This document shows, piece after piece, positions 9,120-22,469 of a stretch of 45,028 nt of DNA. Below the pieces are notes generated by a model that was not told the DNA's origin, did no database searches, and saw nothing but the letters and a program-made list of their open reading frames with translations. The DNA comes from an uncultured archaeon (GTDB lineage: Archaea > Asgardarchaeota > Lokiarchaeia > Sigyniarchaeales > SOKP01). How positions within the stretch are numbered: the stretch's first letter is position 1; every line of letters starts with the position of its first letter. Location: contig CAZDTP010000031.1 of assembly GCA_964508365.1 (NCBI GenBank), forward strand, positions 1 to 45,028, in the 5' to 3' direction. The position numbers and the translations under genes are program-made.

Positions 9120-9911
9120 CTATTGTTTTTCTTTTTCACTGGTTTTTAATTTATCTTTTAAAAAGCTGATATTTTCTTCAAGTGTTTTCATTATTGGCTC
9201 GTCTGTTAATTCAAGATTATTAAGAATTTCAAATGCTTGCTCAAATTTATTTAAAGCTTTTGGATAATTTCCTTTTCTATAATATACTCCTGGAATATTG
9301 AAAAACTTGAAGGAGAGCATTTGAATTGATGTAATTAAGATCCAAATAATGATAAGGCTCGTTAATATCCATTCAACAATAGGCTGGAAAGAAAAGAATA
9401 ATACAAAAAAAACGATGACAATTGCCATTCCCAGATAAGATAAATATCTCTTAAACTTAGGACCATTGTAGCTTATTAGTGAGCCTCCCATATACATTAA
9501 ATAACTATATAATCCAATGTAAGCTGATGTCCCTGCAAAACTTACAAACGCTACAAAATAGTGGAACGCGAAAAATAAATCAAGATATGACTTATCAGGG
9601 ATTATTCCTACTAGACCTATACAAACACAGCTGAAAATTGATACCCCAGTAGCTAATCTTCTAATGCTTTCCTTGATATTTATTAGTTCTCTTTCGAGTT
9701 GAATAAAAAAGGGGATACCTAAAGATCCAGCAACGACAAATCCTATACTAAATAAGGTTTTTGCCACTCCCTCTCCTAAAGAACTTACCGTATTTAGTAA
9801 TGGACTATAATTTGGAGTTAAAATAGCTGCAGTTAGTATAAAACTTAATGCAATGATAATTCCTAATAATCCAAACATACTTTCCATTTTATGCTCTATT
9901 TTATTTTCCAT
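9120..9911 (-). CDS. DUF998/Frag1-like multi-pass membrane protein with C-terminal TPR-like helix
   Basis: Y.PLLNTVSSLG, C.GLVG..P and H..VA..SF TM pattern; tail YYRKGNYPKALNKFEQAFEI is TPR-like; AGGTGA RBS. Confidence 0.7.
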   Translation of the reverse strand: MENKIEHKMESMFGLLGIIIALSFILTAAILTPNYSPLLNTVSSLGEGVAKTLFSIGFVVAGSLGIPFFIQLERELINIKESIRRLATGVSIFSCVCIGLVGIIPDKSYLDLFFAFHYFVAFVSFAGTSAYIGLYSYLMYMGGSLISYNGPKFKRYLSYLGMAIVIVFFVLFFSFQPIVEWILTSLIIIWILITSIQMLSFKFFNIPGVYYRKGNYPKALNKFEQAFEILNNLELTDEPIMKTLEENISFLKDKLKTSEKEKQ

Positions 9912-10060
9912 TTCAAATCACCTTAAGTACTAAGGTTATACTTTTTTAATAATTTTAAACTTTTTTGAAAAGGTAAAACTTACAAAATTATATATTAGAA
10001 AAAATCTTGATTAGAAATATATAGATTCAAGATTAATTTCATTGATCATTCATTAAAGCA

Positions 10061-10630
10061 ATGTCAAGCAAGAAAGAGAAATTTGTCTTTAAAATAACGG
10101 TAATTGGTGATGGAATGGTTGGTAAAACTTCACTAATTAAGAAATTTACTCACGGAAGTTTTCAAACTGATTATATTCGAACCATCGGTGCCCAATTTTC
10201 TAAATATAATCAAAATATTGAGGGTGATATTTGTACACTTTCTTTATGGGATATTGCAGGACAAGATGAATTTTTTTTTCTACGCCCCTCATTTTATAAA
10301 GAAAGTAAAGCTGCCATTATCGTATATTCTCTTGAGGATAATCAACATGGAAAAGACAGTTTTAAACATATTTCCAATTGGCATAATGATATTAAAAAAT
10401 TCTGTGGAAAAATTCCTATTATCCTTCTGGGTAATAAAGTAGATTTGATTGATAAGAATATTCTTGACGAGTCAAGAATGTTAAAATTGATTCAAAAAAG
10501 AGAATTTTTAGGTCATTTTATAACATCTGCTTTAACAGGTGAGGGTGTTATTGAAGCATTTCAAGTAATTATAAATGAGCTATACCATAAATATAAAAAA
10601 TTAGATGAGTTTCTAAAAATGAAAGTTTGA
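10061..10630 (+). CDS. Rab-like small GTPase
   Basis: G1 GDGMVGKT, G2 TIG, G3 WDIAGQ, G4 NKVD, G5 TSA; no C-terminal Cys prenylation motif. Confidence 0.95.
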   Translation: MSSKKEKFVFKITVIGDGMVGKTSLIKKFTHGSFQTDYIRTIGAQFSKYNQNIEGDICTLSLWDIAGQDEFFFLRPSFYKESKAAIIVYSLEDNQHGKDSFKHISNWHNDIKKFCGKIPIILLGNKVDLIDKNILDESRMLKLIQKREFLGHFITSALTGEGVIEAFQVIINELYHKYKKLDEFLKMKV

Positions 10631-10669
10631 ATAATATATTTGAACTAATTGAAGAAATAGAGTAGAAAT

Positions 10670-10810
10670 TTACTTATCATTATCTTGTTCCATATTGTAA
10701 AAGATTATTTTTTCATTTGGTGGTTTTTTTTCTATGATTTCTTTATCATCTGTCCAAATAATTTTAGGATTAGCACTATCTGCTTCTTTATTATTATCTT
10801 TTTCATTCAT
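10670..10810 (-). CDS. Small unannotated acidic protein (46 aa, MNEKDNNKEADSANPKIIWTDDKEIIEKKPPNEKIIFYNMEQDNDK)
   Basis: Translated manually from ATG 10810 to TAA 10670. It fills the gap between two + genes without overlap. Confidence 0.55.
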   Translation of the reverse strand: MNEKDNNKEADSANPKIIWTDDKEIIEKKPPNEKIIFYNMEQDNDK

Positions 10811-10882
10811 ACGATCATCATTTTAATTAATAATTTTATCTATTATTAATTTAATCACAAATATGTATAATGGATAAATATC

Positions 10883-13495
10883 GTGATTTTAAAGTTATTT
10901 ATAATAGGTCCTGGAGGGATTCTTTATTATTCTAAGAGTTTTTTTACTCATATTGAAATAGATGAATGTGTTCTTAGTGGTTTTTTGGCTGCATTTAGTG
11001 ATTTTGCAGAAGAGATAAAGGGTGGTGAGGTAAAAGCGCTGCTTTTCAAAGAGTTTAATTTCATTTATTCTTATTCTCTTGAATTCAAATTAATCTTTAT
11101 TATTGTAATAGATAAGGATAGTTTAGAAGAAGAGGCTAAAATAAAAGTGGACTTAATGAAGAACGAATTTATAAAGAGATATGAACAGCATCTTAAAAAT
11201 TGGTCAGGGAATGTCAGTATCTTTGATGATTTTGATAACTTTGTTGAAGAGAATATTTTCATTCCTCCAAAGATCTTAATCACTGGAGAACTTGGAGTAG
11301 GCAAAACAACTATTCTTAACTTATTTTCCGGAGAAATAAGAATAGAATTAGACGATGAGTTAAATCAAGTATTAAAAAAATCTATTAAAATTAAAATTGC
11401 AAATGACATTAAGGAATGTATAATTCGAGAAATCGATCTAAATAACTTAGTTAAATATTATCCTCTTTATAAGGACTTATTAAATTCTATTGATCTAATA
11501 CTTATTATAACTAATTCTGCAGCAAGTAACTTAGGCAGAACGCAAGAAATTATTTCAAAGTTAAAACTTAAAATTCAGAATATCGATTTTTATTTAATAG
11601 CAAATTTTCAAGACCTTGAAGATACCGCATTTAAACCTCAACAAATAGAAGATATATTCGATATAAAGACATATGGATTTTCTGCTATTGAAGATGATTC
11701 TAAAGATAAATTTATATCTATTTTAAATAAAGTTTTAAAAATTTCCAATTTAACGCAAGAAAATAACAGAATAAGTACCTCTCAGGATAATTCAGTGATT
11801 ACTATAACTGAGGAAGCAGAACCAGAAGAGATTCACAATGTTATGGATATCCAAATAGATTATTCGGTCATTTGGGATAAGATTGAAAAAGCACAGATTT
11901 TAGAAAAACAAGGAGATCATATTGCAGCTGCAGAAAAATTTGCTAGCGCGGCGAGTCAATTTAAAAATCTATGTTCCGATATAGAAAATTTACAAGATAA
12001 CAATGAAATGAATGCGATTTATTATCTTTGTAAAGCTTGGGAATGTATGGAGTTAGCTGAAGAACAAAAAGAACCCAGCATGTATGCAGAATCTGCTGAG
12101 TTGTTTAATAAAGCAAGTGAATTTTTTCTTGATTCAAAATATAAATCTTTAGCACTAGGAAATGCGTCATTCTGTCGAGCCTTAGAAATAGGCTCTAAAT
12201 TTGATAAATCAAGTGATAAAACTAAGAAAGCAGAATATTACCCTGAAATTAAAATGATGTTGAGAAAAGCTGCAAATTCATATCGTAAAGGTGGCTTTGA
12301 AAATGAAGCAGATTGGGCTCTCGCAACGTCCACATATTTTGATGCAACATGGTATATTATTAGTGCAGATGAGGAACTCAATCTTGATGAGAAAAAAAGA
12401 CTCCTATATATAGGTTCTAGGATGCTTAAGTCAGCAGCTGAATTATTTGAAAATGCAGGTTATAAAGATAAAGAGAAGGAAGTAAAAGATCGCTTAGAAT
12501 TAGTACAAAAGGAAGAAAAAATCATAATATCTGCTTTAAATACTATTAGTGAACCTTCGATATCTAAAAAGGCAATTTCTGTTTTAAAAACTCCTTTATC
12601 CGGGAAATCAGAATCTCAAAAGAAGTATAAATTGCTTTATAAAGACTTACTCCATGAATATTCTAAAATACAAAAAAGGCAATGTCGGATAGGTATAGCT
12701 CAAATTGGAGTATCCTCTTCAGGCGATTTATTGAGTGAATATTATGAAGAAAAAATGTCTGGTTTGATTGGACTCAAAGCTGAAAAAGTTGATCTAGTGC
12801 AGGAAAAGGTTAGATTGATGATTGAGGAAGCTCACAATGAAAAAATCAATATATTAATATTTCCAGAAATGGCCATTGATCTTAATTATGGCAAAATTTT
12901 AGAAGAACTTTCAGATTTAGCAAAGTCTTATGAAATGTATATTATCCCCGGTTCATTTCATAATTTAGAAAATAATCGTAATACTAGTATAGTAATTGGT
13001 CCAGAAGGCATACTTTGGGAGCAAGAAAAACACATTCCCGCAACCATTCATTTTCAAGGAAAAAGATTTGAAGAAAACATAAATGTCGGGACATTACCCC
13101 GTGAAACTATCATCTGTAATACTGAATATGGTAGAATAGCAATTGTCATATGCAGAGATTTTCTTGATATGGATTTAAGAGTGGAATTAAAGAATTTTGA
13201 ACCTCCTATAGATCTAATTATAAACCCGGCGTATACACCTGTGACTGCCGATTTTAAAGCAGCACATTTTGATGCTCGAAGATCTATTTATGCGTATTGC
13301 TTTTTTGTAAATATCGCAGAATATGGTGAATCTCTTATATACACCCCAGAAAAGGAAAGAGTCGAAAGAATTATCCCTCCAAAAGAAGAAACTTTGATTT
13401 ATAAAGATCTTGATCTATTTAAACTGCGTTCTGAACGTAAAAAATGGGAAATAGAACATAAAAAAAAACATCAATTTATTCAAAGTACTCGATAA
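10883..13495 (+). CDS. Multidomain fusion: longin + degenerate small GTPase + TPR/SNAP-like helical repeats + nitrilase (CN-hydrolase) domain
   Basis: Longin aa ~1-125 (LSGFLAAFSDF...FDDFDNFVE); P-loop GELGVGKT at aa 135; ANFQD and FSA as G4/G5. Ala-rich helical repeats at ~330-560. Nitrilase from aa ~602 (RIGIAQ) with triad FPE662, K716, IC757RD. Confidence 0.85.
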   Translation: MILKLFIIGPGGILYYSKSFFTHIEIDECVLSGFLAAFSDFAEEIKGGEVKALLFKEFNFIYSYSLEFKLIFIIVIDKDSLEEEAKIKVDLMKNEFIKRYEQHLKNWSGNVSIFDDFDNFVEENIFIPPKILITGELGVGKTTILNLFSGEIRIELDDELNQVLKKSIKIKIANDIKECIIREIDLNNLVKYYPLYKDLLNSIDLILIITNSAASNLGRTQEIISKLKLKIQNIDFYLIANFQDLEDTAFKPQQIEDIFDIKTYGFSAIEDDSKDKFISILNKVLKISNLTQENNRISTSQDNSVITITEEAEPEEIHNVMDIQIDYSVIWDKIEKAQILEKQGDHIAAAEKFASAASQFKNLCSDIENLQDNNEMNAIYYLCKAWECMELAEEQKEPSMYAESAELFNKASEFFLDSKYKSLALGNASFCRALEIGSKFDKSSDKTKKAEYYPEIKMMLRKAANSYRKGGFENEADWALATSTYFDATWYIISADEELNLDEKKRLLYIGSRMLKSAAELFENAGYKDKEKEVKDRLELVQKEEKIIISALNTISEPSISKKAISVLKTPLSGKSESQKKYKLLYKDLLHEYSKIQKRQCRIGIAQIGVSSSGDLLSEYYEEKMSGLIGLKAEKVDLVQEKVRLMIEEAHNEKINILIFPEMAIDLNYGKILEELSDLAKSYEMYIIPGSFHNLENNRNTSIVIGPEGILWEQEKHIPATIHFQGKRFEENINVGTLPRETIICNTEYGRIAIVICRDFLDMDLRVELKNFEPPIDLIINPAYTPVTADFKAAHFDARRSIYAYCFFVNIAEYGESLIYTPEKERVERIIPPKEETLIYKDLDLFKLRSERKKWEIEHKKKHQFIQSTR

Positions 13496-13514
13496 TTCCA
13501 ACATTAAAAAAAAT

Positions 13515-14018
13515 GTGAATAAAAGTATGTCAATTGACTATGATTTTGTATTTCCGGTCTATATTTACAATGAAATTTTGGAGAAAATTATTGAATTATG
13601 TAAAGCTTCTAGCAACGAAATTTTTGGTTATCTAATTGGAAATATCTTAAAATGGAATGACACTTTATATATTATCATTGAAGACCAACTGTTTATCAAT
13701 AATACTATACATAATAATCGATTCTCAACTTTCCAGATTGAAGGAACAGCCGGGCAATATGAAAAAGAATTTCAAAAGCTAAAAAATCTTAAAAATAATG
13801 ATTGCTTGAGAATAGTTGGATGGTGGCATTCGCATCCTGATTTTGGCTGCTTTTTATCCGACACAGATTTACATACTCAAGAGTTTTTCTTTCCAGAATC
13901 ATATCAAGTCGCATTAGTAGTAGATCCGATTAGAGATGTATTCCAATTTTTCACACTCGAAAAGCAATTAGAATCTAATTATAAAACTATAAGTTATGCG
14001 ATAATATCTTCAAAATAG
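13515..14018 (+). CDS. JAB1/MPN+ (JAMM) metalloprotease, Rpn11/CSN5-like deubiquitinase
   Basis: EIFGYLIG plus GWWHSHPDFGCFLSDTDLHTQ (H105, H107, S115, D118), nearly matching the Rpn11 motif GWYHSHPGFGCWLSGVD. Confidence 0.95.
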   Translation: MNKSMSIDYDFVFPVYIYNEILEKIIELCKASSNEIFGYLIGNILKWNDTLYIIIEDQLFINNTIHNNRFSTFQIEGTAGQYEKEFQKLKNLKNNDCLRIVGWWHSHPDFGCFLSDTDLHTQEFFFPESYQVALVVDPIRDVFQFFTLEKQLESNYKTISYAIISSK

Positions 14019-14047
14019 AGCTTTAATTAAAAATGCTGTATAAATAA

Positions 14048-14938
14048 ATGAAAGATAAAAATGATCCATTAGATATTGAAGTAGGAAGAATTGAATTAAT
14101 AGATTCAGATAAATATGATCGTCAAAAACGAATAAAAGGATGGGATCAAAATAAAATTATTAATTCGAAAGTATTGGTGATTGGTGCTGGAGCAACGGGT
14201 AATGAAGTGATAAAGAATTTAGTTTTGGCAGGTGTAGGAACAATTACTTTGATCGATTTTGACTTTATTAATTTATCAAATTTGAATAGATGTGTACTTT
14301 TCAACTTAAAATCCGCAAAAAAAAATCAATATAAGGCGGATGTAATAAAACAAGTTTGTAAAGATTTAAATCCAGAAGTAAAAATTAATACGATTATTAA
14401 GGATTTAAATCAAGTAGAAAAAAGCATTTATAAACAAAATGACGTTATCTGTTCGTGTTTAGATAATGTTGAGGCACGCTTAGAAGCTAATAATTATTCC
14501 TATTTTTATGATATTCCTTTTATTGATTCTGGAATTGATGGGTATTTTGGGACTGTGCAAGCAGTATATTCAGGAATTAAAGATTCAGCATGCTTACAAT
14601 GCGGGATAACTAATAAAGATTTAGATTTAATGTGGAAAAAGTTCTCATGTACAGGAGAGGAACTAAATGGTGAAGATGGAGAAACTACAAGAAAAATCTC
14701 TTCGATTATAACTACTACTTCCATAATAGGCGGCATTCAATCACAACAAACATTAAAATTTATATTAGGACTAGACCATTTTAAGGAATATAAGAGATGG
14801 GATCCTAAAATAGGGAAACCGCTTATTGGAAAACAATTGAATTATAATGGACTTACTAATAGCTTTAAAATAATTGAAAAAGTGAAGGATCCCACATGTT
14901 GGACATGTTCCTATAAAAAACAAAAAGAGGAACAATAA
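14048..14938 (+). CDS. E1-like ubiquitin-activating enzyme (ThiF/UBA fold)
   Basis: YDRQ, GAGATG, KNLVLAG, DFD...SNLNR, CLDNVEAR, two CxxC zinc pairs (CLQC, CWTC) and putative catalytic Cys201 (FSCT). Confidence 0.93.
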   Translation: MKDKNDPLDIEVGRIELIDSDKYDRQKRIKGWDQNKIINSKVLVIGAGATGNEVIKNLVLAGVGTITLIDFDFINLSNLNRCVLFNLKSAKKNQYKADVIKQVCKDLNPEVKINTIIKDLNQVEKSIYKQNDVICSCLDNVEARLEANNYSYFYDIPFIDSGIDGYFGTVQAVYSGIKDSACLQCGITNKDLDLMWKKFSCTGEELNGEDGETTRKISSIITTTSIIGGIQSQQTLKFILGLDHFKEYKRWDPKIGKPLIGKQLNYNGLTNSFKIIEKVKDPTCWTCSYKKQKEEQ

Positions 14939-15008
14939 AATTATAAATTAAAGTATAGAATAAATATACACAATAAAATAAAATAATATTAAAAAAGAAT
15001 ATAAAAAG

Positions 15009-15575
15009 ATGCCAGAATTACCGTATGAAATATGGAAAGATCGAATAAATAATGAGATTAATATTTTAAGAAAATCAAATTTAATAGAGCATAATTCAAT
15101 TAATTGGCGTGAAAATGATGTTGAATTTTGGATCAATATTGAAGCTTTAGGATTTGTGCAAGATCATAATAAAGAGGGTGTTAAATTAATCCCAAAGAAG
15201 TTTCATCGAGTAAATCTAAGAATAAATAGATCCTTTCCATATCCGGGCGGTATAGATTTTTCATGGTATTCTAATATCTTTCACCCAAATATCCATCCAA
15301 TTGACATTCAAGATTTAAATGTATCTGGTTCTGGATTTATCTGCCTTAACATTCTAAAAAAATGGTCAAGGCTATCAGATTTGGAAACAACAATTAAAGC
15401 GTTAAAAAAACTAGTTGAGAATCCAAATGCTGATGATCCTCTTATTTATGACTCCTGTTTAAAAGCAGCGGAGTATTTCAAAAAACATTCTATTGAATCA
15501 CTCAAGGAAGAATATAAATGTAGTGATAAAAAAGATAAAGATGAAACGGATGACATTTTAATAATCGATGAATAA
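15009..15575 (+). CDS. E2-like ubiquitin-conjugating enzyme (UBC fold)
   Basis: FPYP, IFHPNI, catalytic FIC112LNIL, W...DLET.I.AL..L..NPNADDPL; acidic C-terminal tail. Confidence 0.92.
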   Translation: MPELPYEIWKDRINNEINILRKSNLIEHNSINWRENDVEFWINIEALGFVQDHNKEGVKLIPKKFHRVNLRINRSFPYPGGIDFSWYSNIFHPNIHPIDIQDLNVSGSGFICLNILKKWSRLSDLETTIKALKKLVENPNADDPLIYDSCLKAAEYFKKHSIESLKEEYKCSDKKDKDETDDILIIDE

Positions 15576-15621
15576 AATTATATTTATAAATTCTTCCCAA
15601 AATATTTATAGAAAGAAAAAA

Positions 15622-15879
15622 TTACTGCCCACCTACCACTCTTGTCCATAGAGCTAATTTGTCGTCCTCCTTTAACCCAAATTTATGAACTGCGTCAGAA
15701 ATTGTAATTGAATTAGGGAGCTCCTTATCGCTGAGAACTAATGTATATGATCTTTGCTCAGAGTCTATTATACCCATATACTTTATTACAATATCGATTA
15801 CACGCTCAACAATATGATGTTCTTTAACGTCTAGCTTTGTAACCTTACCAGTCCTAGTGTCTTCAACTGATATTCTCAT
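15622..15879 (-). CDS. Ubiquitin-like (beta-grasp) protein precursor ending TRVVGG-Q
   Basis: 85 aa, MRISVE...TKLDV...V..VI..., YTLVL...LP...TI...GLKEDDKLAL.TRVVGG pattern; adjacent to E1, E2 and JAB. Confidence 0.9.
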   Translation of the reverse strand: MRISVEDTRTGKVTKLDVKEHHIVERVIDIVIKYMGIIDSEQRSYTLVLSDKELPNSITISDAVHKFGLKEDDKLALWTRVVGGQ

Positions 15880-15941
15880 AATCTATTCTCTATTTTACTT
15901 TTTTTTTATCTCTGAAGTATGTATAATCATTTAAAAAAATT

Positions 15942-17000
15942 TCATTTTTTAGGTTTTTCAATTTTTATTGGTTCTTTATCGGTTGATTCAATTTTAAACG
16001 GTTTGGAAGGTTTTGAATTATCTATAGGCCCATTGCAAACCCAACACGCATTTTCAGCATTACTTAGAGCACGAGCGCACTCTTCATGGTATATTGTTTC
16101 ACAATTAGGACAAAGAAAAATATTGAATCCACTAACTTTACCTTTACATATCATGCATATTTTTTGCTCTCTGTAATATGTAACTTCTTCTTCAGTTATT
16201 TGCGCAGGTCTTTTAGTTAATCTAAACAAGGATTCCTCAATTTTCATCTCTTTTTTCTTTTCTTTCTTCTCACGCTTTTCAGGTTCTTCCCTTAAACCTA
16301 AATAGAAAAGCCAAACGGCACTTAATGAGGCAATCCGAATTATTGCAACGATCTCGGCGATACCCAAAAAATCTAACAACGCCGATACATTAAGAATTAA
16401 ATATCCTATTGCTAACTGATGATATTTCTTTCTAACTACCCCTGAAAACCGATAACCTTTAATAAGCATGCCGATCCCAGAAAAAAAAATTCCTAAGAAC
16501 GTAAAAATAGTTCCGATAAGACCGGCAATTGACCCTGTAATAAGACTATCATCGATCAATTCAGCACCAGGAGGGGTAGGTTCAATAAACGTAATGTTTC
16601 CTAATGTATCTAAAAAAATACTAAGCTCAAAAATTAAAGCTAAAGCAATAATTATGATCATGTAGAGTTTTTTTATCTTAGGTATCAATAATTCAGCAGT
16701 TACATAAGATCCAAAGATGTAAGCAACAGGCACAAATGGCCAAATTAAAAAAGCAAGTAAAAATACATTTATGTTGTTTCCTGTTATAAGAATTGATAAA
16801 AAGTCGACACAAATTCCCAAATAAGCTATTCCTATTAAAAATATATTTATCCCCATAATTGAGAGAAGTTTGATATTTGTTTTCCTAGAAATATAGTAAA
16901 AGTATATTCCAAAACTACAAAATGCTATTAGCACGCCCAATGTAGAAGAACCAATAAGTCCACCTAATATAGATAACATAAGCATTCTAAAAATCCTCAA
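15942..17000 (-). CDS. 7-TM membrane protein with C-terminal C4HC3 zinc finger (RING-variant/PHD-like); probable start ATG 16985 (MLMLS)
   Basis: Seven hydrophobic segments, a charged linker, then C-x2-C-x11-C-x2-C-x4-H-x2-C-x10-C-x2-C at 16035..16157. Confidence 0.85.
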   Translation of the reverse strand: MRIFRMLMLSILGGLIGSSTLGVLIAFCSFGIYFYYISRKTNIKLLSIMGINIFLIGIAYLGICVDFLSILITGNNINVFLLAFLIWPFVPVAYIFGSYVTAELLIPKIKKLYMIIIIALALIFELSIFLDTLGNITFIEPTPPGAELIDDSLITGSIAGLIGTIFTFLGIFFSGIGMLIKGYRFSGVVRKKYHQLAIGYLILNVSALLDFLGIAEIVAIIRIASLSAVWLFYLGLREEPEKREKKEKKKEMKIEESLFRLTKRPAQITEEEVTYYREQKICMICKGKVSGFNIFLCPNCETIYHEECARALSNAENACWVCNGPIDNSKPSKPFKIESTDKEPIKIEKPKK

Positions 17001-17237
17001 AGAAAATATTAAATATAAATAAATATCTACTTTAATGTATAATTTGATACTTCGGGATAGTATAAAAGTTTAACTTATTTTATATTTGCAAGTTCAATTT
17101 AAATTCGCATTTCCTTTCTTTTTGTAGGTCTTTGGGCAATCCTAAAGATTGAAACCCCCTCAATTAATTATAATATATTCATCATATTTTATATAAAGTT
17201 TTTACAAAAAGGTCTTAAAAAGATTAAAAAAAAAAGA

Positions 17238-17477
17238 TTATTTTTTGGTTTTTAAATTACTTATATTAAAATCAAATTTATTAGGATTAAGTGCATAATA
17301 TCCCAGAGATTTTTTCCAGTTTCTTTCATCTCTTTTCTTTTGGATAGGATCAATGTCTGTTTTCTTCTCAAGTAATTGTTTTACTTCTTTTACAGCTTCT
17401 TCTTTTAATTCTTCGATAATTTTATATTTAGGAAATTCTCTAAATATTGGAAAAACTTCTTCTTTACTTGATGTCAT
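17238..17477 (-). CDS. Hypothetical protein (79 aa)
   Basis: ATG-started ORF with GAGGT RBS, divergent from the AbrB/PhoU regulator. Confidence 0.65.
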   Translation of the reverse strand: MTSSKEEVFPIFREFPKYKIIEELKEEAVKEVKQLLEKKTDIDPIQKKRDERNWKKSLGYYALNPNKFDFNISNLKTKK

Positions 17478-17518
17478 TTATTTTTACCTCTTTACTTTAG
17501 ATTTATTAATATAATGAA

Positions 17519-17580
17519 TGTTTAAAGAATGTTTAAATATATTGTATAAATTGTTTAAACAAGTTTAAACAAGTTTAAAT
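17519..17580. promoter_or_regulatory. Phased operator array of GTTTAAA(C) motifs including the perfect palindrome TTGTTTAAACAA
   Basis: GTTTAAA at 17520, 17531, 17553, 17563 and 17573 (spacing 11, 22, 10, 10) in a divergent promoter region. Confidence 0.75.
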
Positions 17581-17603
17581 ATTAATAATAATATAAGTTT
17601 AAT

Positions 17604-18494
17604 ATGGAAAGAACCTATAGAAATCTGCAGAAGATTAGCGGTTCTTTTTTTGTTAGTCTACCAAAAAAGTGGGTTGAAAATTTTAATTTAAGTAAGAAAT
17701 CTTCCATATTGATCACTGTTCGCAGTGACGGATCTTTATTAATTTCACCAAAACATAGACAGGAAGTAGATCGATCTACTGATGAGGTAATACTTCACTC
17801 AAATCCCTATATTGCTCGAGAAATTGTAAAAAAATGCCTCTCTGGTCAATCAAATATAGTAATACTATCAGATAAACCATTTGAAGAGAGTATAAGAGAT
17901 GAAATAAGATGGTTTGTTAATGGTCTTCCTAACACCGAAATAATTGAAGAACAACCTCAGAGGATTGTTGTTCAAAATTTCGGCTATAAACAAATCCCTA
18001 CTCGTAAGTTAATACAACGTTTATTATATCTTATTTTGGATATGTTTGATAACCTTGAAACTAATAAATATGAAGAGTTAAATTATAATTTTAACCAATT
18101 ACGAAAATTTTACTTTATTTTTGTAATCCATATTAGGACTTATCTTAGAACAGGCGTATATGTCACAGAAGATAAAGATTTTACGCCTTTAGAAGCCATG
18201 GATTATCGTATGTTTTGTGAAAAGATTGAAGATATTGGATCAATTCTAAGAGATTTTCATTTAAGTGAAGAAATTAAGGAATATTTTACAGAAATCAAGC
18301 AATATTTTAATGAGGTAATGATTGCTTATCAGAAGAAAGCTTTAGAATTAGCACATAAAGTATGGAAAAAAAGAGATATGTTAATTGAAAAAGGAAATTT
18401 GCTCATAAATGATTTAAAATTTAAGGAGAAGGAAAGGATTAGAGTTTTAATGAGAATTGCATATAACTGTAGGGATATGGCGGCTTTTATCTAA
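17604..18494 (+). CDS. AbrB/MazE-type DNA-binding domain + PhoU-like regulator (archaeal phosphate uptake regulator family)
   Basis: N-terminal RNLQKISGSFFVSLPKKWV...ITVRSDGSLLISP (AbrB); PhoU-like helical repeats (EKIEDIG...RIAYNCRDMA). Confidence 0.85.
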   Translation: MERTYRNLQKISGSFFVSLPKKWVENFNLSKKSSILITVRSDGSLLISPKHRQEVDRSTDEVILHSNPYIAREIVKKCLSGQSNIVILSDKPFEESIRDEIRWFVNGLPNTEIIEEQPQRIVVQNFGYKQIPTRKLIQRLLYLILDMFDNLETNKYEELNYNFNQLRKFYFIFVIHIRTYLRTGVYVTEDKDFTPLEAMDYRMFCEKIEDIGSILRDFHLSEEIKEYFTEIKQYFNEVMIAYQKKALELAHKVWKKRDMLIEKGNLLINDLKFKEKERIRVLMRIAYNCRDMAAFI

Positions 18495-18497
18495 TTT

Positions 18498-19073
18498 TTA
18501 AAAAATTTTGTAAATAATATCATCCAAATCTCTTTTTGGTACATGCATAGTACCATCGGGATTTTTCCAATATTTATATGAATCTTTATAAGGTTCCATA
18601 AATGATTCTTCATCAGGGTATCCTAAACTGATTACATGTTTGACTTGATATTGATCTGGAACTTTTAATAGCAATTTAATTTTTCTGACATTAATGTTAG
18701 CCATCCAACAACTCCCTATCCCATATTTAACTGCACCTAATAATATATTTTCTACCGCAGCTCCAACATCAAAATCAAAAAATGAAGGCTTAATTTCTGT
18801 ATTAACAAGTACTATTATGTACGCTTTAGGTTCTCTTCCTGGCTCTGGAGTTCGCTGGTCTTCAGGTAAAGAACCTGCAAATTTAATTAATTTAAATAAT
18901 TTTTCTCTTGTTTCACTATTTTCAACTAAAACAAACTCAAGACCTTGAACATTTCGGGCCATTGGAGCAACTCGAGCGTAATCAATTAATTTTTTCAGAA
19001 TATCCCTTGGAATTGGATCTTGCTTATATCTTCTTATAGTTCTTCTTTTATATATTGCTTCTTCAATATCCAA
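18498..19073 (-). CDS. Nitroreductase family protein
   Basis: AIYKRRTIRRY, AP..RNVQ, DVGAAVENILLGAVKYGIGSCW and ISLGYP. Confidence 0.93.
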   Translation of the reverse strand: MDIEEAIYKRRTIRRYKQDPIPRDILKKLIDYARVAPMARNVQGLEFVLVENSETREKLFKLIKFAGSLPEDQRTPEPGREPKAYIIVLVNTEIKPSFFDFDVGAAVENILLGAVKYGIGSCWMANINVRKIKLLLKVPDQYQVKHVISLGYPDEESFMEPYKDSYKYWKNPDGTMHVPKRDLDDIIYKIF

Positions 19074-19084
19074 ATTTAAAACCT

Positions 19085-20143
19085 TTATTTTTTCCCTAAT
19101 CTTGAATTTATTATCGTCTCTGCTATGTCGTAGAAAGCATATTCTACATTTTTTCCAGTCAAAGCAGATGTTTCTATATATTCTAAATTTAATTCTTTGG
19201 CTAAAGCTAAAGCCTCAACTAATTTAACTTTTCGTACTTCTGTTAAATCACTTTTATTACCAAAAATATATCCAACCATTTGATGATGGTGTTTTTCCAT
19301 ATTATTCATAACATCATTATACCAATTTTTGATACTCGTAAAGGAAATTCTATTTGTCAAATCAAAAATAAGTAAAATAGCCTCAGAGCCTTGGTAGAAA
19401 TATCTTCTCATCGTCTCGAATTTTGCTTGTCCGGCGATGTCCCATAAGATCATTTCAATAACTCCACTTTTAGCATGAAATATTTTTTCAGTGATACTTA
19501 CTCCAAGAGTGGGAACGTAAGTTCTTAAGAACGCATTATCAGTAAATCGTAGTATTGTAGATGTCTTCCCTACGCCGGGATCTCCAACAACTACGAGTTT
19601 AAACCTATAGTCTACTATTTTTTCTTCTTTACTTCGTTTTTCAGGAAATTCTTTTGATGTTGGTGAAGATATTTCTTTAGTTCTAAAATCTTCTAGTAAC
19701 TTACTGACGCTATTTTGTAGAATTTTAATCTCTTCAAAAATCTTTTCACTTTCTACATTTCGATTCTTTAATTCAATAATTTTTCTCGTTGTTTCATCAA
19801 AGGGAGCCTTAAGGTAATTAATATATTTATAGAAAATCACATCATCTGTCTCTTTAAACAAGAATGTTATCGCGGATCGTGCAAATCCTCCTCTTTTACT
19901 TTCATCTTTTCTTTCAAAATATCTAATTAATCCCTTTAATCTTAAAGAAGGAAAGGGAATGATTAAAAGTGAATCTGGTACAGAACCCTGATCACCTGAA
20001 AGTATTGTCATAGTTTTAATTCCGACTAACATTCTAATAGATTCAGGTAAATTTGATGGTAGCCAATTTATGGGATTAGGACCGAGTTCATCGTCAATAT
20101 CTGTGTATATAACGGCATCAATTAGCTTTTTCAATTTTTTCAC
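19085..20143 (-). CDS. uDENN/folliculin-NPRL2-like longin domain fused to a Rab-like GTPase
   Basis: N-terminal D.DDELGPNP..W.P, IIPFP and KDESKRG; C-terminal GDPGVGKT, WDIAGQ, NKSD, ETSA. Confidence 0.85.
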   Translation of the reverse strand: MKKLKKLIDAVIYTDIDDELGPNPINWLPSNLPESIRMLVGIKTMTILSGDQGSVPDSLLIIPFPSLRLKGLIRYFERKDESKRGGFARSAITFLFKETDDVIFYKYINYLKAPFDETTRKIIELKNRNVESEKIFEEIKILQNSVSKLLEDFRTKEISSPTSKEFPEKRSKEEKIVDYRFKLVVVGDPGVGKTSTILRFTDNAFLRTYVPTLGVSITEKIFHAKSGVIEMILWDIAGQAKFETMRRYFYQGSEAILLIFDLTNRISFTSIKNWYNDVMNNMEKHHHQMVGYIFGNKSDLTEVRKVKLVEALALAKELNLEYIETSALTGKNVEYAFYDIAETIINSRLGKK

Positions 20144-20452
20144 GAAAAATTATTAAAATTTGTTAAAAAACTACATTTGCTTTTATATTCGAAATTAATT
20201 TATAATTAATATTAAAAATATTTATACTTGAGTTATTCCAAAAATAGGATGGAAATTAGGTAATTGATGAGTTTCTAATCGTTTTAAAACTTATATTTCA
20301 TTATAAGGTTTTTTTTCTTCTTAGCCTACTTTTAAAAGATTTATATACATGAATGTATAATGTTAATTTAAGAAAAATTTTTAATAAAAAATATTTGTAA
20401 ATACGACGAATAATTAAATTTCTTGTTATTTCATGTAGAGGTTTAACTCAAA

Positions 20453-20554
20453 ATGCTAATGCTTTCTGACGCAGATTTAATATTGGCAGTTCGGCAAACT
20501 ATAATTGGATTTTTGTTAACCTCTACACTCGGATTATTTTTTGTTTTCAAATAA
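20453..20554 (+). CDS. 33-aa single-helix micro-ORF (MLMLSDADLILAVRQTIIGFLLTSTLGLFFVFK); truncated paralog of the 7TM-zinc finger N-terminus or a leader peptide
   Basis: GAGGT RBS; gapless alignment (12/33 identical) to the N-terminus of the 21026 protein; shares a 20-nt direct repeat with it. Confidence 0.55.
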   Translation: MLMLSDADLILAVRQTIIGFLLTSTLGLFFVFK

Positions 20555-20570
20555 AGAGGTAAATAGAAAA

Positions 20571-21017
20571 ATGGTTAAAAAAATTTTGAAAGGGTTAAAA
20601 TGGACATTTTTAGTGAATTTTATTGTTTTTGTTGTTTTTGGAGTACTTTTATTCTTCCTTGTGGAAGATTATATGGAGTGGTTCAGTATTCCTTTTCTAG
20701 CTCCCGTTGGTTATGGAGGATTATTCGGTGGCGCCCTTTTAGGCTATGCGAGCGCTTCCTTTATAGCGTGGCAAGAGACAGAATGGGAGAAAGTAAAAAT
20801 CCTCGTAATAATGGAGATAGTTTGGCATATGCTAGGAGTATACACTTTTTTTTGGTGGAATATTTTTTGTTGGCCAAATATCTCTATATTATTGCATGCA
20901 AAAATAATGAACTTGATATATCTCATTCTTTTTTCTGGATTCCTCGCAGCATTCATCACTTTCTATATAAAACATGAAAAGGAACAACCACATAATAAAT
21001 CATTTTTGGTAGGGTGA
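20571..21017 (+). CDS. 4-TM membrane protein (tracked ORF starts 20541; ATG 20571 is more likely)
   Basis: Four hydrophobic helices and GGLFGGALLG; GAGGT RBS at 20556-20560. Confidence 0.8.
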   Translation: MVKKILKGLKWTFLVNFIVFVVFGVLLFFLVEDYMEWFSIPFLAPVGYGGLFGGALLGYASASFIAWQETEWEKVKILVIMEIVWHMLGVYTFFWWNIFCWPNISILLHAKIMNLIYLILFSGFLAAFITFYIKHEKEQPHNKSFLVG

Positions 21018-22111
21018 AAGTTAAAATGCTAATGCTTTCTGATGTAGTTTTTTACAACACACTTTTAGAGATTGTGATGTATTTTTTTCCGTCTTTTATA
21101 ATAGGATTATTTTTTATGTTCCAAGGAAGAAAGACAAAAACTAAGCTTCTCTTTTATTATGGGTTAGCATTAATTGGAATTAGCATAACTCTTGGATTTG
21201 GCACTTTCATCGATTTTACAACTATCCTTATAACAGGAAATAACATGGACGGCCAATTAAAACTTTATATATTTTGGGCACCTACTGGTTTTACAGCGCC
21301 CGTTATGGCTTATGTGTGGGCTGAAATATTAATACCCAAGAAGAAGTGGTATTTTTTATCTATAATTTTATTTTTGAATATGCTCAGTTTATTGGATCTA
21401 TTTATATTTCATTGGACGACTGAAATTATTGTACCTCCCATAATACCTGGAGAAGGACTAATAGAAGTCTATTATGATTTGCCAATACCAACGCAAAAGT
21501 TTCCCTTTAGGTGGAATGTATTTACATATTCTTATGCCTTAACCATTGGAGTTGGACTTCTATACAAAGCTTCTGGGACAAAAGGCATATTTAGAAAGAA
21601 GTATATCTATTTATCTATTGGTATTATACTTTATAGTCTCTCACGAATCCTTATGTTTCAAATGGTGCAAGCTTTTGGGGAAGAAGTTCAATATATTTTC
21701 ATGATAATTGACGTGACATCCTTAGTAACTGCTTATTTGGGTTTAAGAGCAGAGCCTGAGGAGCGTAAAAAGAAAGTTAAAAAGAAGATTATAGCTAAAG
21801 ATTCACTATTTCGAATAATTGAAAGACCTGAACAAATTACAGACGAAGAGGTCTCCTATTATCGGGAAAAGAAGATTTGCTTGATGTGTAAAGGAAAAGT
21901 CGCTGGATTTAACATCTTTCTATGCCCTAAATGTGAAGCATTGTATCATCAAAACTGCGCTCGAACGCTTTCTGACTTAGAAAATGCTTGTTGGGTCTGT
22001 AATCAACCGATTGATGAAAAAAAACCCACGAAACCATTTAAAATTGCTGAAGAAAAGAAGATTGTTGAAGATGTAGTAAAAAAAGAGAATAATTCAAAAT
22101 TGGATAAATAG
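21014..22111 (+). CDS. 7-TM membrane protein with C-terminal C4HC3 zinc finger (paralog of 15942..17000); probable start ATG 21026
   Basis: Same architecture; finger at 21878..22000 has identical spacing and 30/41 identity to the paralog; GGGTGA RBS before ATG 21026. Confidence 0.85.
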   Translation: MKVKMLMLSDVVFYNTLLEIVMYFFPSFIIGLFFMFQGRKTKTKLLFYYGLALIGISITLGFGTFIDFTTILITGNNMDGQLKLYIFWAPTGFTAPVMAYVWAEILIPKKKWYFLSIILFLNMLSLLDLFIFHWTTEIIVPPIIPGEGLIEVYYDLPIPTQKFPFRWNVFTYSYALTIGVGLLYKASGTKGIFRKKYIYLSIGIILYSLSRILMFQMVQAFGEEVQYIFMIIDVTSLVTAYLGLRAEPEERKKKVKKKIIAKDSLFRIIERPEQITDEEVSYYREKKICLMCKGKVAGFNIFLCPKCEALYHQNCARTLSDLENACWVCNQPIDEKKPTKPFKIAEEKKIVEDVVKKENNSKLDK

Positions 22112-22117
22112 AAGTAT

Positions 22118-22328
22118 CAGACTAATCTCTAGGAGGAAGAATTAGGTGTAATTCGATATGATTTTCTTATCAGCTGAAAGTTGGACTGTTGGGTTATCTC
22201 GCTTGATTTTGGTTATTTGGGGATTGATTTGGGGTATATTCTTATTTTTGGAGTGTAACTAGCTTTCTATCGTTTATTACATGATTGGATAAGGGTCACC
22301 CTAATTCTCTTAAATGAGATCTAGTCTG
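22118..22328. repeat. Imperfect ~31-bp inverted repeat bracketing a micro-ORF
   Basis: Left arm CAGACTAATCTC...AGAATTAGGTG (22118-22148) versus right arm CACCCTAATTCT...GAGATCTAGTCTG (22297-22328). Confidence 0.55.
22158..22262 (+). CDS. 34-aa single-helix micro-ORF (MIFLSAESWTVGLSRLILVIWGLIWGIFLFLECN)
   Basis: AGGTG RBS 9 nt upstream; one TM helix resembling TM1 of the 7TM family. Confidence 0.5.
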   Translation: MIFLSAESWTVGLSRLILVIWGLIWGIFLFLECN

Positions 22329-22469
22329 CCCTAAAACATAATATAAAATATATTCGATTTTTTTAATTTGTTCGTTAGTCACGCAATTGTCAAAATAACA
22401 ACTATTTTTTAAGCCTTAATTTCTTCATTTATTACAACGGGAAATAAATTTACGGGATAATAATTAAAA

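Follow-up and report, generated by a model that had tools for sequence, protein, structure and literature searches.

The stretch of DNA considered here (45,028 nucleotides, referred to as the window; contig C31 of its source genome) encodes a complete ubiquitin-type conjugation cascade. A ubiquitin-like protein (Ubl), an activating enzyme (E1), a conjugating enzyme (E2) and a JAB-family protease are grouped with a seven-transmembrane protein that carries a RING-type zinc finger (7TM-RING), and with a lead gene that joins a longin-type domain to a G domain. This cascade is intact, conserved and co-inherited with the longin/G-domain gene, and usually with the 7TM-RING gene, on an accessory cassette of one archaeal family. 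The reading favored here, with a probability of roughly 0.55, is that the cassette is a self-contained, lineage-specific, membrane-wired Ubl-conjugation module standing beside the canonical ubiquitin system of the same genome, and such a module would probably be membrane-anchored and signal-gated. The source genome comprises 4.07 Mb in 149 contigs with about 30% G+C and contains dozens of Ras-like GTPase genes; the database relatives of the window proteins are labelled Lokiarchaeota or Promethearchaeota. Labels of the form L0xx denote the relative loci fetched and Gxxx the genomes, G000 being the source genome, while f1 and f4 denote families. The six genes of the cascade are the following:

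10883–13495, + strand: lead gene (fusion), 870 amino acids
13515–14018, + strand: JAB, 167 amino acids
14048–14938, + strand: E1, 296 amino acids
15009–15575, + strand: E2, 188 amino acids
15622–15879, − strand: pro-Ubl, 85 amino acids
15942–17000, − strand: 7TM-RING, 352 amino acids

The spacing is 19 bp between the lead gene and JAB, 29 bp between JAB and E1, 70 bp between E1 and E2, and 62 bp between Ubl and 7TM-RING. An earlier note on this DNA had given the same six genes, coordinates and gaps, all of which are confirmed by the recomputed open reading frames (ORFs). Its description of a complete ubiquitin cascade is likewise borne out, as Ubl, E1, E2 and JAB are all intact, and the residues that it named as catalytic (JAMM H105/H107/D118, C201 of E1, C112 of E2 and the Gly-Gly of Ubl) are correct and invariant in 22 orthologous loci.

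The three enzymes score above the Pfam cut-offs of their families (JAB 2e-12; ThiF 2e-49 for E1; UQ_con 3e-10 for E2). The recomputed JAB motif consists of E35 and H105-x-H107-x7-S115-x2-D118, all five residues of which are invariant in 22 orthologues, and the best solved relatives of the protein are Rpn11 (1.5e-10), then the Rpn11-like protein of Caldiarchaeum (2.6e-8). By its motif, JAB is a JAMM/MPN+ metalloprotease, and it is likely the maturase of pro-Ubl and a deconjugase. E1 contains the nucleotide loop GAGATG at G46–G51 and two CxxC pairs, C182/C185 and C284/C287, marking a zinc site. The catalytic candidate C201, within FSC201TG, sits between the two pairs, and both the motif and the pairs are invariant in 22 orthologues. 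The best solved match of E1 is the active adenylation domain of Uba1 (4e-32); MoeB (5e-19) and ThiF are weaker. The 296 residues leave no space for the ubiquitin-fold domain, the second catalytic domain or the other extra domains of canonical E1s. In E2, HPN (residues 92–94) and C112 are invariant across orthologues, the UQ_con score is 40 bits against a cut-off of 27 bits, and the best solved matches are UBE2C and UBE2N (about 3e-6), where the partner shows a 6-residue gap between HP and Cys. The loop from HPN to Cys is enlarged and longer than that of UBE2C. The C-terminus of E2 (about residues 178–188) carries an acidic-hydrophobic tail of the DDIIIIDD type in nearly all of 20 aligned orthologues; this tail resembles a SIM/AIM-type beta-strand motif and could bind Ubl or the longin domain.

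The precursor of Ubl ends in VVGG-Q. In its 22 orthologues the ending is V[VI]GG with an invariant GG, followed by 0–5 variable residues: the tail is missing in four orthologues and reads Q, Y, S, F, LF, IR, NL, YFY, LKV, SSFF and the like in the others. The variable tail points to maturation of the precursor by the JAMM enzyme. Since the residue after GG varies or is absent, amidase-bearing loci included, Pup-like GGQ chemistry is excluded, and the deamidation of such an end by the adjoining amidase is thereby ruled out. The Ubl profile is collinear, end to end, with residues 6–76 of ubiquitin, and all its top matches are ubiquitin or NEDD8; against a single ubiquitin the E-value is only about 0.3, and the Pfam ubiquitin model is not reached. 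Between genera Ubl remains 66–81% identical.

By sequence, the cascade is of the eukaryote/Asgard type and not of the sulfur-carrier or bacterial type, because E1 is nearer to Uba1 than to MoeB, JAB resembles Rpn11, E2 resembles UBE2C and UBE2N, and Ubl is collinear with ubiquitin. For the bacterial antiviral Ubl types (Bil, CBASS Cap2/Cap3 and 6A-MBL), the PADLOC models match neither E2 nor Ubl, and E1 and E2 are separate genes here. The short E1, with its MoeB/ThiF zinc motifs and without extra E1 domains, could also belong to a sulfur-carrier or cofactor pathway, in which a MoeB/ThiF enzyme serves a ThiS/MoaD-like protein and no protein is conjugated. Such a pathway is extremely improbable in view of the UBC E2, the JAMM protease and the RING finger, the greater proximity of E1 to Uba1 than to MoeB or ThiF, the tailed precursor of Ubl, and the lack of sulfurtransferase or cofactor genes within the block.

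The same genome encodes a canonical locus on contig C3, with ubiquitin (111 amino acids), E1 (411), E2 (175) and JAB (268), and an additional E1/E2 pair on contig C6. The window E2 and the E2 of contig C3 do not retrieve each other by phmmer, and a profile-profile comparison of Ubl with the canonical ubiquitin of the same genome gave nothing useful (probability 1%). The canonical locus, together with the failure of the two E2s to retrieve each other, marks the window set as an additional, divergent and compact system. Other RING-like proteins are encoded in the source genome as well, so the membrane protein is not, as the earlier note had it, the only E3 candidate.

The distribution of the cascade was followed through E2, with orthologues accepted at E ≤1e-10 among 399 genomes of the phylum, the source genome counted. 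An E2 orthologue was found in 73 of them, including 69 of 134 in family f1 (six genera) and 3 of 4 in family f4; within the genus, searches detected the cassette in 14 of 41 genomes. The single f4 genome examined (G033) has its E2 (L034:9619-10119) alone beside a gelsolin-repeat gene, with no E1, JAB or Ubl nearby. Twenty-five loci were examined, and 21 of these, from six genera of one family, had sufficient sequence to establish the gene order, which is lead gene, JAB, E1 and E2 converging on Ubl. A lead gene with longin and Arf-like G domains stands directly before JAB in 18 of the 21 loci, at a gap of about 20–60 bp. In most loci it encodes about 295 amino acids that match residues 1–290 of the window fusion, with two copies in L074 and three in L075. 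It is a fusion of 868–882 amino acids in six loci, the window included, and a 338-residue form with a G domain and a helical part in two. In L071 it is reduced to an N-terminal fragment of 67 amino acids, and in G262 it is missing, two 1275-residue proteins with a C-terminal solenoid and nitrilase being placed directly upstream of JAB. A FastTree phylogeny of JAB, E1 and E2, midpoint-rooted, puts the fusion-type locus of the window inside its genus clade and the fusion-type loci of genus g21 as its sister group; support values aside, no order of events is read from this tree. The comparison of these architectures identifies the longin/G-domain gene as the near-constant companion of the cascade and the amidase as a later addition. 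The amidase as a constant member of the operon is ruled out, as the solenoid and CN-hydrolase are fused in one subclade only. Thus, the earlier claim that the cascade is locked to a longin-GTPase-amidase fusion stands for the longin/G-domain part and falls for the amidase.

The second companion is the 7TM-RING gene. In eight loci it adjoins Ubl, and in L068, L076 and L080 among these it is present as two or three copies in tandem. Seven further loci have it or a variant TM-RING gene at a distance of no more than about 4 kb, which gives about 15 in all. In the tandem arrays (one to three copies), the membrane parts are divergent and the finger is conserved. What appeared to be small soluble RING proteins in L066 and L072 are truncated 7TM-RING remnants (L066:11426-11602 and L072:11117-11293). 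These finger fragments lie beside intact cascades; one is without the first ligands and has Phe in place of a Cys, and the other stops short of the last CxxC. In L069 (G196), the place of 7TM-RING next to Ubl is taken by a 590-residue protein (L069:7845-9617) with two RING-like stretches and zinc ribbons (DZR, DUF7575). Among 24 relatives of the genus, a full-length 7TM-RING is present in five of the eight E2-positive genomes and in one of the 16 E2-negative ones. The other three E2-positive relatives have more divergent TM-RING variants next to the cascade, and the remaining E2-negative relatives have only finger-less 7TM paralogues or fusions of the 7TM part to a TIR domain. The genomes are kin, so these counts are not independent and describe a pattern, not a statistic.

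The neighborhood comparison that the earlier note had proposed is therefore largely favorable to it, with the lead gene in 18 of 21 loci and an intact or variant TM-RING within about 4 kb in about 15. The stronger wording, that the 7TM zinc-finger protein is locked to the cascade, holds in so far as it co-occurs with E2 and drops out with the block described below, and fails at the two loci with a remnant and the several where it was not seen. These gaps suit the alternative of ordinary soluble tagging for proteostasis, as in Caldiarchaeum, in which the 7TM-RING and longin/G-domain genes are mere neighbors or belong to other pathways: the core survives where a RING gene is decayed or lacking next to it, E2 stands alone in the sister family f4, the genome holds other RING-like proteins, and JAB is Rpn11-like. 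The constancy of the lead gene before JAB across six genera, the co-occurrence of 7TM-RING with the cassette and the canonical ubiquitin system already present in the genome nevertheless make this explanation unlikely.

The cassette as a whole behaves as one unit. In two relatives of the genus, G016 and G017 (100% complete, with no match to E2 or Ubl), the sequences corresponding to window positions 9131–10606 and 18492–19072 are adjacent. The distance between them at the junction 10606/18492 is 10 bp in G016 and 127 bp in G017, and the abutting flanks carry the DUF998-Ras and nitroreductase-Ras genes. As the flanks abut in both relatives, the interval between them is a presence/absence cassette, and the whole gene set drops out as a single block:

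10607–18491: presence/absence cassette of 7.9 kb, with the lead gene, JAB, E1, E2, Ubl, 7TM-RING, a 79-residue ORF and an AbrB/MazE-like gene

An imperfect 24-nucleotide inverted repeat, 75% complementary, is present at the cassette ends (10583–10606 and 18489–18512); it may represent a split terminator belonging to the two convergent genes on the flanks, or have arisen by chance in AT-rich sequence. Genes for an integrase or a transposase were not noticed within the 7.9-kb block, although no systematic search was made.

The membrane companion is a candidate receptor. Its finger lies in the cytoplasmic, C-terminal part of the protein:

15942–17000, − strand: 7TM-RING, likely start ATG at 16985; finger at nucleotides 16035–16157 (residues 282–322)

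An AlphaFold2 (AF2) model with pLDDT >90 over residues 10–230 supports seven membrane helices. Among the Foldseek matches listed against the PDB were G-protein-coupled receptors and rhodopsins, at TM-scores of 0.30–0.43, with no Hrd1 chain. In the ESM Atlas, the protein comes nearest to models of a Promethearchaeota 7TM-TIR cluster (0.72), to several clusters with the 7TM part only, and to HisKA_7TM sensor modules of bacteria. When both proteins are taken as predicted models, the superposition on a HisKA_7TM module gives TM-scores of 0.56 (query) and 0.74 (match) with a root-mean-square deviation of 3.5 Å, and there is no Pfam hit to PF16927. Genes for 7TM-TIR proteins occur in the genus at L092:1873-3114 (G015) and L093:4077-5294 (G007), encoding 413 and 405 amino acids with a TIR_2 domain. 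The L093 gene lies beside two Ras-type GTPases of 346–350 amino acids with N-terminal extensions, similar to the one at 19085–20143 of the window. A general pairing of 7TM paralogues with Ras-like GTPases was rejected: it is seen in this syntenic block and at one 7TM-TIR gene, and not at the other 7TM paralogues of the genome. Since the 7TM part is shared by genes with RING, with TIR and with no finger, it behaves as a portable membrane module with exchangeable cytoplasmic outputs. The membrane-sensing idea of the earlier note gains from the modelled resemblance to HisKA_7TM modules and from the reuse of the same part with a TIR output. Its likening to Hrd1 does not, in view of the PDB matches listed, and its preference for such a role over bulk proteasomal tagging goes further than sequence allows.

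The finger follows the pattern C-x2-C-x11-13-C-x2-C-x4-[H/C]-x2-C-x10-C-x2-C, with the ligand columns kept in 15 sequences; the residue that follows ligand 7 is always W, and a pair of hydrophobic residues stands between ligands 1 and 2. Of the 15 aligned sequences, 11 have Cys as ligand 5, and His takes this place in the window protein, its own paralogue, L036 and L077. The finger is therefore of a C4[H/C]C3 type, and a fixed C4HC3 or MARCH-type finger, as first proposed, is ruled out by this variability; the RING-CH layout of MARCH proteins is not matched either. As an E3, the finger would localize tagging to the membrane, possibly under the control of the 7TM part. The co-folding of E2 with the finger, suggested earlier as a check, lends this a little weight. 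The E2 core and the RING reach a score of 0.51 against 0.01 for the best control; at least 56% of contacts are shared between runs, and the pLDDT of the partner is at least 71. Of 80 solved complexes, 58 attain the mark applied, as do 2 of 110 mismatched pairs, yet at scores of 0.60 or less, where the present pair falls, it is attained by just 7 of those 80 complexes and by both passing mismatches. Pairs of E2 and RING are also well represented among solved structures, so the co-fold indicates likeness and not binding.

The lead protein of the window consists of four parts:

residues 1–125: longin-type domain
residues 128–290: G domain
residues 328–552: solenoid
residues 600–870: CN-hydrolase

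Residues 1–125 have no direct Pfam longin match, and paralogues within the genome are found with them at 1e-7 to 1e-9. These paralogues pass the Fuz_longin_1 model (32 and 30.7 bits against a cut-off of 26.1 bits), and the AF2 model of the region is alpha/beta/alpha with pLDDT 56–88. Through these paralogues and this model, the region may be assigned to the longin type. The longin/GTPase paralogues in the source genome are canonical Arf/Ras/Gtr1-like fusions. The G domain scores 4e-5 with small_GTP (23 bits, under the 42.5-bit cut-off), and its model superposes on Arf, Arl and MglA (Foldseek TMt 0.62–0.70). The motifs G1 (GExGVGK[TS]T), G4 (NFQD) and G5 (SA) are kept in 20 sequences, and the G3 position reads RE[IVMF][DN][LI]xx[LIT] in 20 of 20, with neither the Gly of DxxG nor the Gln. 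The label of GTPase given in the earlier note is corrected accordingly, as the DxxG glycine is missing in every orthologue. From these motifs, nucleotide binding is likely and canonical hydrolysis doubtful, and the protein would be an adaptor or a substrate instead of a classical switch.

Residues 328–552 are modelled with confidence by AF2 as a nine-helix TPR-like solenoid. The CN_hydrolase match in Pfam (2e-8, residues 641–850) has 34.4 bits against a cut-off of 23.2 bits; the triad E662, K716 and C757 and the C-terminal FIQSTR are invariant in nine sequences, and the Cys aligns with the ICYD cysteine of Nit2. A close-homologue profile of the solenoid and nitrilase found nothing in the PDB past Nit2 and beta-alanine synthase. 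The combined module is common to 934 database proteins, mostly fusions of about 875 amino acids or TPR proteins of about 1275 amino acids. The latter family, with TPR, a weak MIT-like match, the solenoid and a CN-hydrolase ending in FIQSTR, is highly conserved and widespread in Lokiarchaeia. Its G000 copy (contig C4:92388-96206; L081:7389-11207; 1272 amino acids) lies amid metabolic genes. A GPP34 (Golgi phosphoprotein 3)-like gene (L081:6102-6707) is found divergent from and upstream of this copy on contig C4. The C-terminal 560 residues of the fusion are 59% identical to the 1275-residue family, and on this sequence identity its solenoid and CN-hydrolase derive from that family. An exhaustive search for relatives of the nitrilase module gave 49 clusters at E <1e-30 with very different N-terminal parts, and beyond these the identity is about 30%. 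Some of the next relatives carry a HEAT, TrmB or BRO1-like domain, others are stand-alone proteins; a reverse transcriptase was not seen in any of those examined, and the gene context of the nearest stand-alone bacterial relative contains neither a reverse transcriptase nor defence genes.

The presence of an amidase raises the possibility that it acts on the Ubl pathway itself, as a C-terminal Gln deamidase (Pup/Dop-like), an isopeptidase or a Cys-thioester transferase. In nitrilase-superfamily enzymes such as Lnt, the Cys-Glu-Lys triad forms acyl-thioester intermediates, and the module is linked with the cascade by fusion to the lead gene in six loci and through the two 1275-residue copies directly upstream of JAB in G262. 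The residue after GG is variable or absent even in amidase-bearing loci (Q, Y, IR, S, NL), most cassettes have no amidase, and the module is abundant in 1275-residue proteins away from ubiquitin genes. A role of this kind is accordingly very unlikely.

A further alternative, absent from the earlier note, regards the cassette as an antiviral or conflict system, in which the 7TM part detects a perturbation of the envelope or membrane, the cascade responds by tagging a protein of the invader or the host or by switching on an effector, and the nitrilase, where present, is toxic or abortive as in DRT1. Several features fit this scenario. The cassette is accessory and patchy and occupies a clean 7.9-kb indel, like the second 7TM-RING block described below. 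The architecture of the lead gene is variable and some loci have it in tandem, the 7TM-RING arrays combine divergent membrane parts with a conserved finger, and the same 7TM module is fused to TIR. The nitrilase favors the PADLOC model of reverse transcriptase-associated nitrilases (5.9e-16, 56.5 bits) over Pfam CN_hydrolase (only about 34 bits). DRT1, a class 3 UG/Abi reverse transcriptase system, is built in a similar way, with a helical-repeat part, an effector nitrilase and a C-terminal lid that is conserved (PMC13275509), and complete prokaryotic Ubl systems with RING E3s have been described as embedded in conflict systems (PMC7159879). The components, however, are nearest to eukaryotic or Asgard housekeeping enzymes, and the PADLOC models give no match to E2, Ubl or 7TM-RING and only partial E1 and generic JAB matches. 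The neighbors of the cassette are not defence genes, and the 1275-residue paralogue sits among metabolic ones. None of the nitrilase relatives examined has a reverse transcriptase; their partners are HEAT, TrmB or BRO1-like domains, if they have any. No E2 relative was found on viral contigs with the patterns used, and the level of Ubl identity across genera gives no sign of arms-race divergence in the core. The conflict role is the main rival of the favored reading and is regarded as possible, though on the improbable side.

The favored reading of a membrane-wired conjugation module can be put as a sequence of steps. The JAMM enzyme would trim the tail of the precursor to expose Gly-Gly, and later remove conjugates. 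E1 would adenylate Ubl and hold it as a thioester on C201, from which it would be received by C112 of E2. The RING of the 7TM protein would then dock E2~Ubl at the membrane, and such docking would restrict tagging to proteins brought to the 7TM receptor; whatever input the 7TM bundle senses may act as a gate on tagging. The longin/G-domain protein, with a P-loop and guanine-specificity motifs and without a canonical switch II, could serve as a nucleotide-binding adaptor or as a preferred substrate linking the cascade and the receptor. In the subclade of the window, this adaptor would have captured the TPR-like solenoid and the predicted-active CN-hydrolase from the Loki family of about 1275 amino acids, which may provide an amidase output or an editing function. 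A bolder version, tentative and rather unlikely, describes a receptor-coupled ubiquitylation in which a 7TM sensor with its own RING, aided by a switch-like longin/G-domain adaptor, answers a cue from the membrane or from outside the cell by Ubl tagging of chosen proteins and, in certain lineages, by activating an amidase effector, with the same sensor family driving either RING or TIR. If true, it would define a modular archaeal family of signalling or innate-immunity receptors that unites the ubiquitin, small GTPase/longin and 7TM receptor toolkits.

Several observations weigh against the membrane-wired module. The finger is modelled with a pLDDT of only 58–65, and all Pfam RING families score it at about 1e-4, below their cut-offs (zf-RING_16 22.2 bits against 27.4; Prok-RING_1 22.1 bits against 29.1, 1.5e-4); PHD and C1 models score it about as well as RING models. 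The likeness of the 7TM part to sensor modules is structural only, and its PDB matches are generic 7TM bundles (0.38–0.43). In two loci the adjacent 7TM-RING is only a decayed remnant; in L071, L074, L078 and L079 (a short contig) none was found within the fetched stretch, and L070 has a finger-less 7TM gene only. Conversely, G012 keeps full-length 7TM-RING genes without the cassette. A remnant or unseen gene at some loci implies that the E3 can be dispensed with or is encoded at another place, or that the 7TM-RING protein does not have this function. Finally, the E2 and Ubl queries both missed the cassette in five near-complete genomes of the genus, and with an accessory cassette a dispensable or conflict-related role fits as well as a regulatory one.

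The remaining features of the cassette and its surroundings are the following:

10061–10630: upstream Ras gene, outside the cassette block
17238–17477, − strand: conserved ORF of 79 amino acids, no Pfam family
17604–18494, + strand: AbrB/MazE-like protein of 296 amino acids, Pfam MazE_antitoxin 2.9e-8
about 20108–22462: second indel block of about 2.4 kb, with a paralogous 7TM-RING gene and a small upstream ORF (20541–21017), missing at the syntenic site of G017
21014–22111, + strand: the paralogous 7TM-RING, 44% identical to the 7TM-RING of 15942–17000

Orthologues of the 79-residue ORF (1e-22 to 6.5e-42) adjoin the cassette in L036, L066, L067, L076 and L077, and the ORF travels with the fusion-type cassette. 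The AbrB/MazE-like gene is within the indel block, yet among related loci only L036 and L076 have a counterpart, and it is not a conserved companion of the cascade.

Asgard ubiquitin systems are usually seen as forerunners of proteasomal and ESCRT-linked tagging. As the cassette indicates, a second, compact cascade has evolved in addition in one Lokiarchaeial family, with a longin/small-GTPase-like protein as its near-constant companion and a 7TM RING protein as its usual one. Three toolkits that eukaryotes combine at membranes would thus have been assembled independently here, on a dispensable block. Since it is restricted to one family and accessory, the cassette says little about the ancestry of eukaryotic signalling, and it is better read as a parallel invention or, possibly, an archaeal immune module. 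With six genes in 6 kb, it offers a small defined set for asking how a membrane-receptor RING, a minimal E1 and a switch-impaired G domain cooperate, and could also show the role of a nitrilase-superfamily enzyme attached to such a pathway.

Among the papers searched, none was found that describes this cassette or gene combination; its parts can be compared with several known systems. With DRT1, the fusion-type lead protein shares the order of a helical repeat before a CN-hydrolase at the C-terminus, the intact catalytic residues and the strong conservation of the extreme C-terminal end. It differs in having no reverse transcriptase; compared directly, the solved DRT1 chain is matched without significance (E 0.39), and the nearest relatives outside Loki are otherwise built. 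Asgard fusions of longin and GTPase domains are known as a class (10.1101/2020.10.19.343400). The lead protein resembles them, as well as MglB-MglA and Rag-Ragulator, in the N-terminal longin-type domain joined to an Arf/MglA-like G domain. Unlike in these fusions, the G3 of the window protein has neither the DxxG Gly nor the catalytic Gln, the gene is operonic with a Ubl cascade, and the solenoid and nitrilase are added in a subclade. Canonical Asgard ubiquitin cascades, with soluble RING E3s, are often ESCRT-linked (10.1101/2023.07.25.550441). They employ the same enzyme families, as does the locus on contig C3, and make Ubl as a precursor, whereas the window set is separate and divergent, has no ESCRT neighbors and is partnered by membrane and GTPase proteins.

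Hrd1 and MARCH proteins are comparable in that they, too, cross the membrane several times and carry, on the cytosolic side, a RING to which E2~Ub would be recruited at the membrane. In contrast to them, homology of the membrane part was not detected among the listed PDB matches, and the H/C variability of the window finger misfits RING-CH. The RING of MARCH is N-terminal, and the spacing of the finger is unlike that of RING-CH. Fingers attached to membrane helices are not new in principle, as the Pfam entry Prok-RING_1 reportedly covers such proteins in bacterial Ubl operons. The window shares with this family (PF14446) a binuclear treble-clef finger that is joined to membrane helices and encoded next to the genes of E1, E2, JAB and Ubl. 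It departs from it in the sub-threshold score (22 bits against the 29-bit cut-off), in the full 7TM bundle, which also occurs alone and fused to TIR, and in the eukaryote-like enzymes. The operon of Caldiarchaeum subterraneum is reported to combine ubiquitin, E1, E2, a small RING protein and an Rpn11-like protease. Relative to this operon, the finger of the window belongs to a 7TM protein and not to a small soluble one, E1 is limited to 296 amino acids, the active-site loop of E2 is larger and its tail acidic-hydrophobic, the first gene encodes a longin/G-domain protein, and the cassette is accessory within the genus. Both arrangements hold in one cluster a pro-Ubl with GG and a tail, a single-chain E1, a UBC E2, an Rpn11-like JAMM protease and a RING-type finger.

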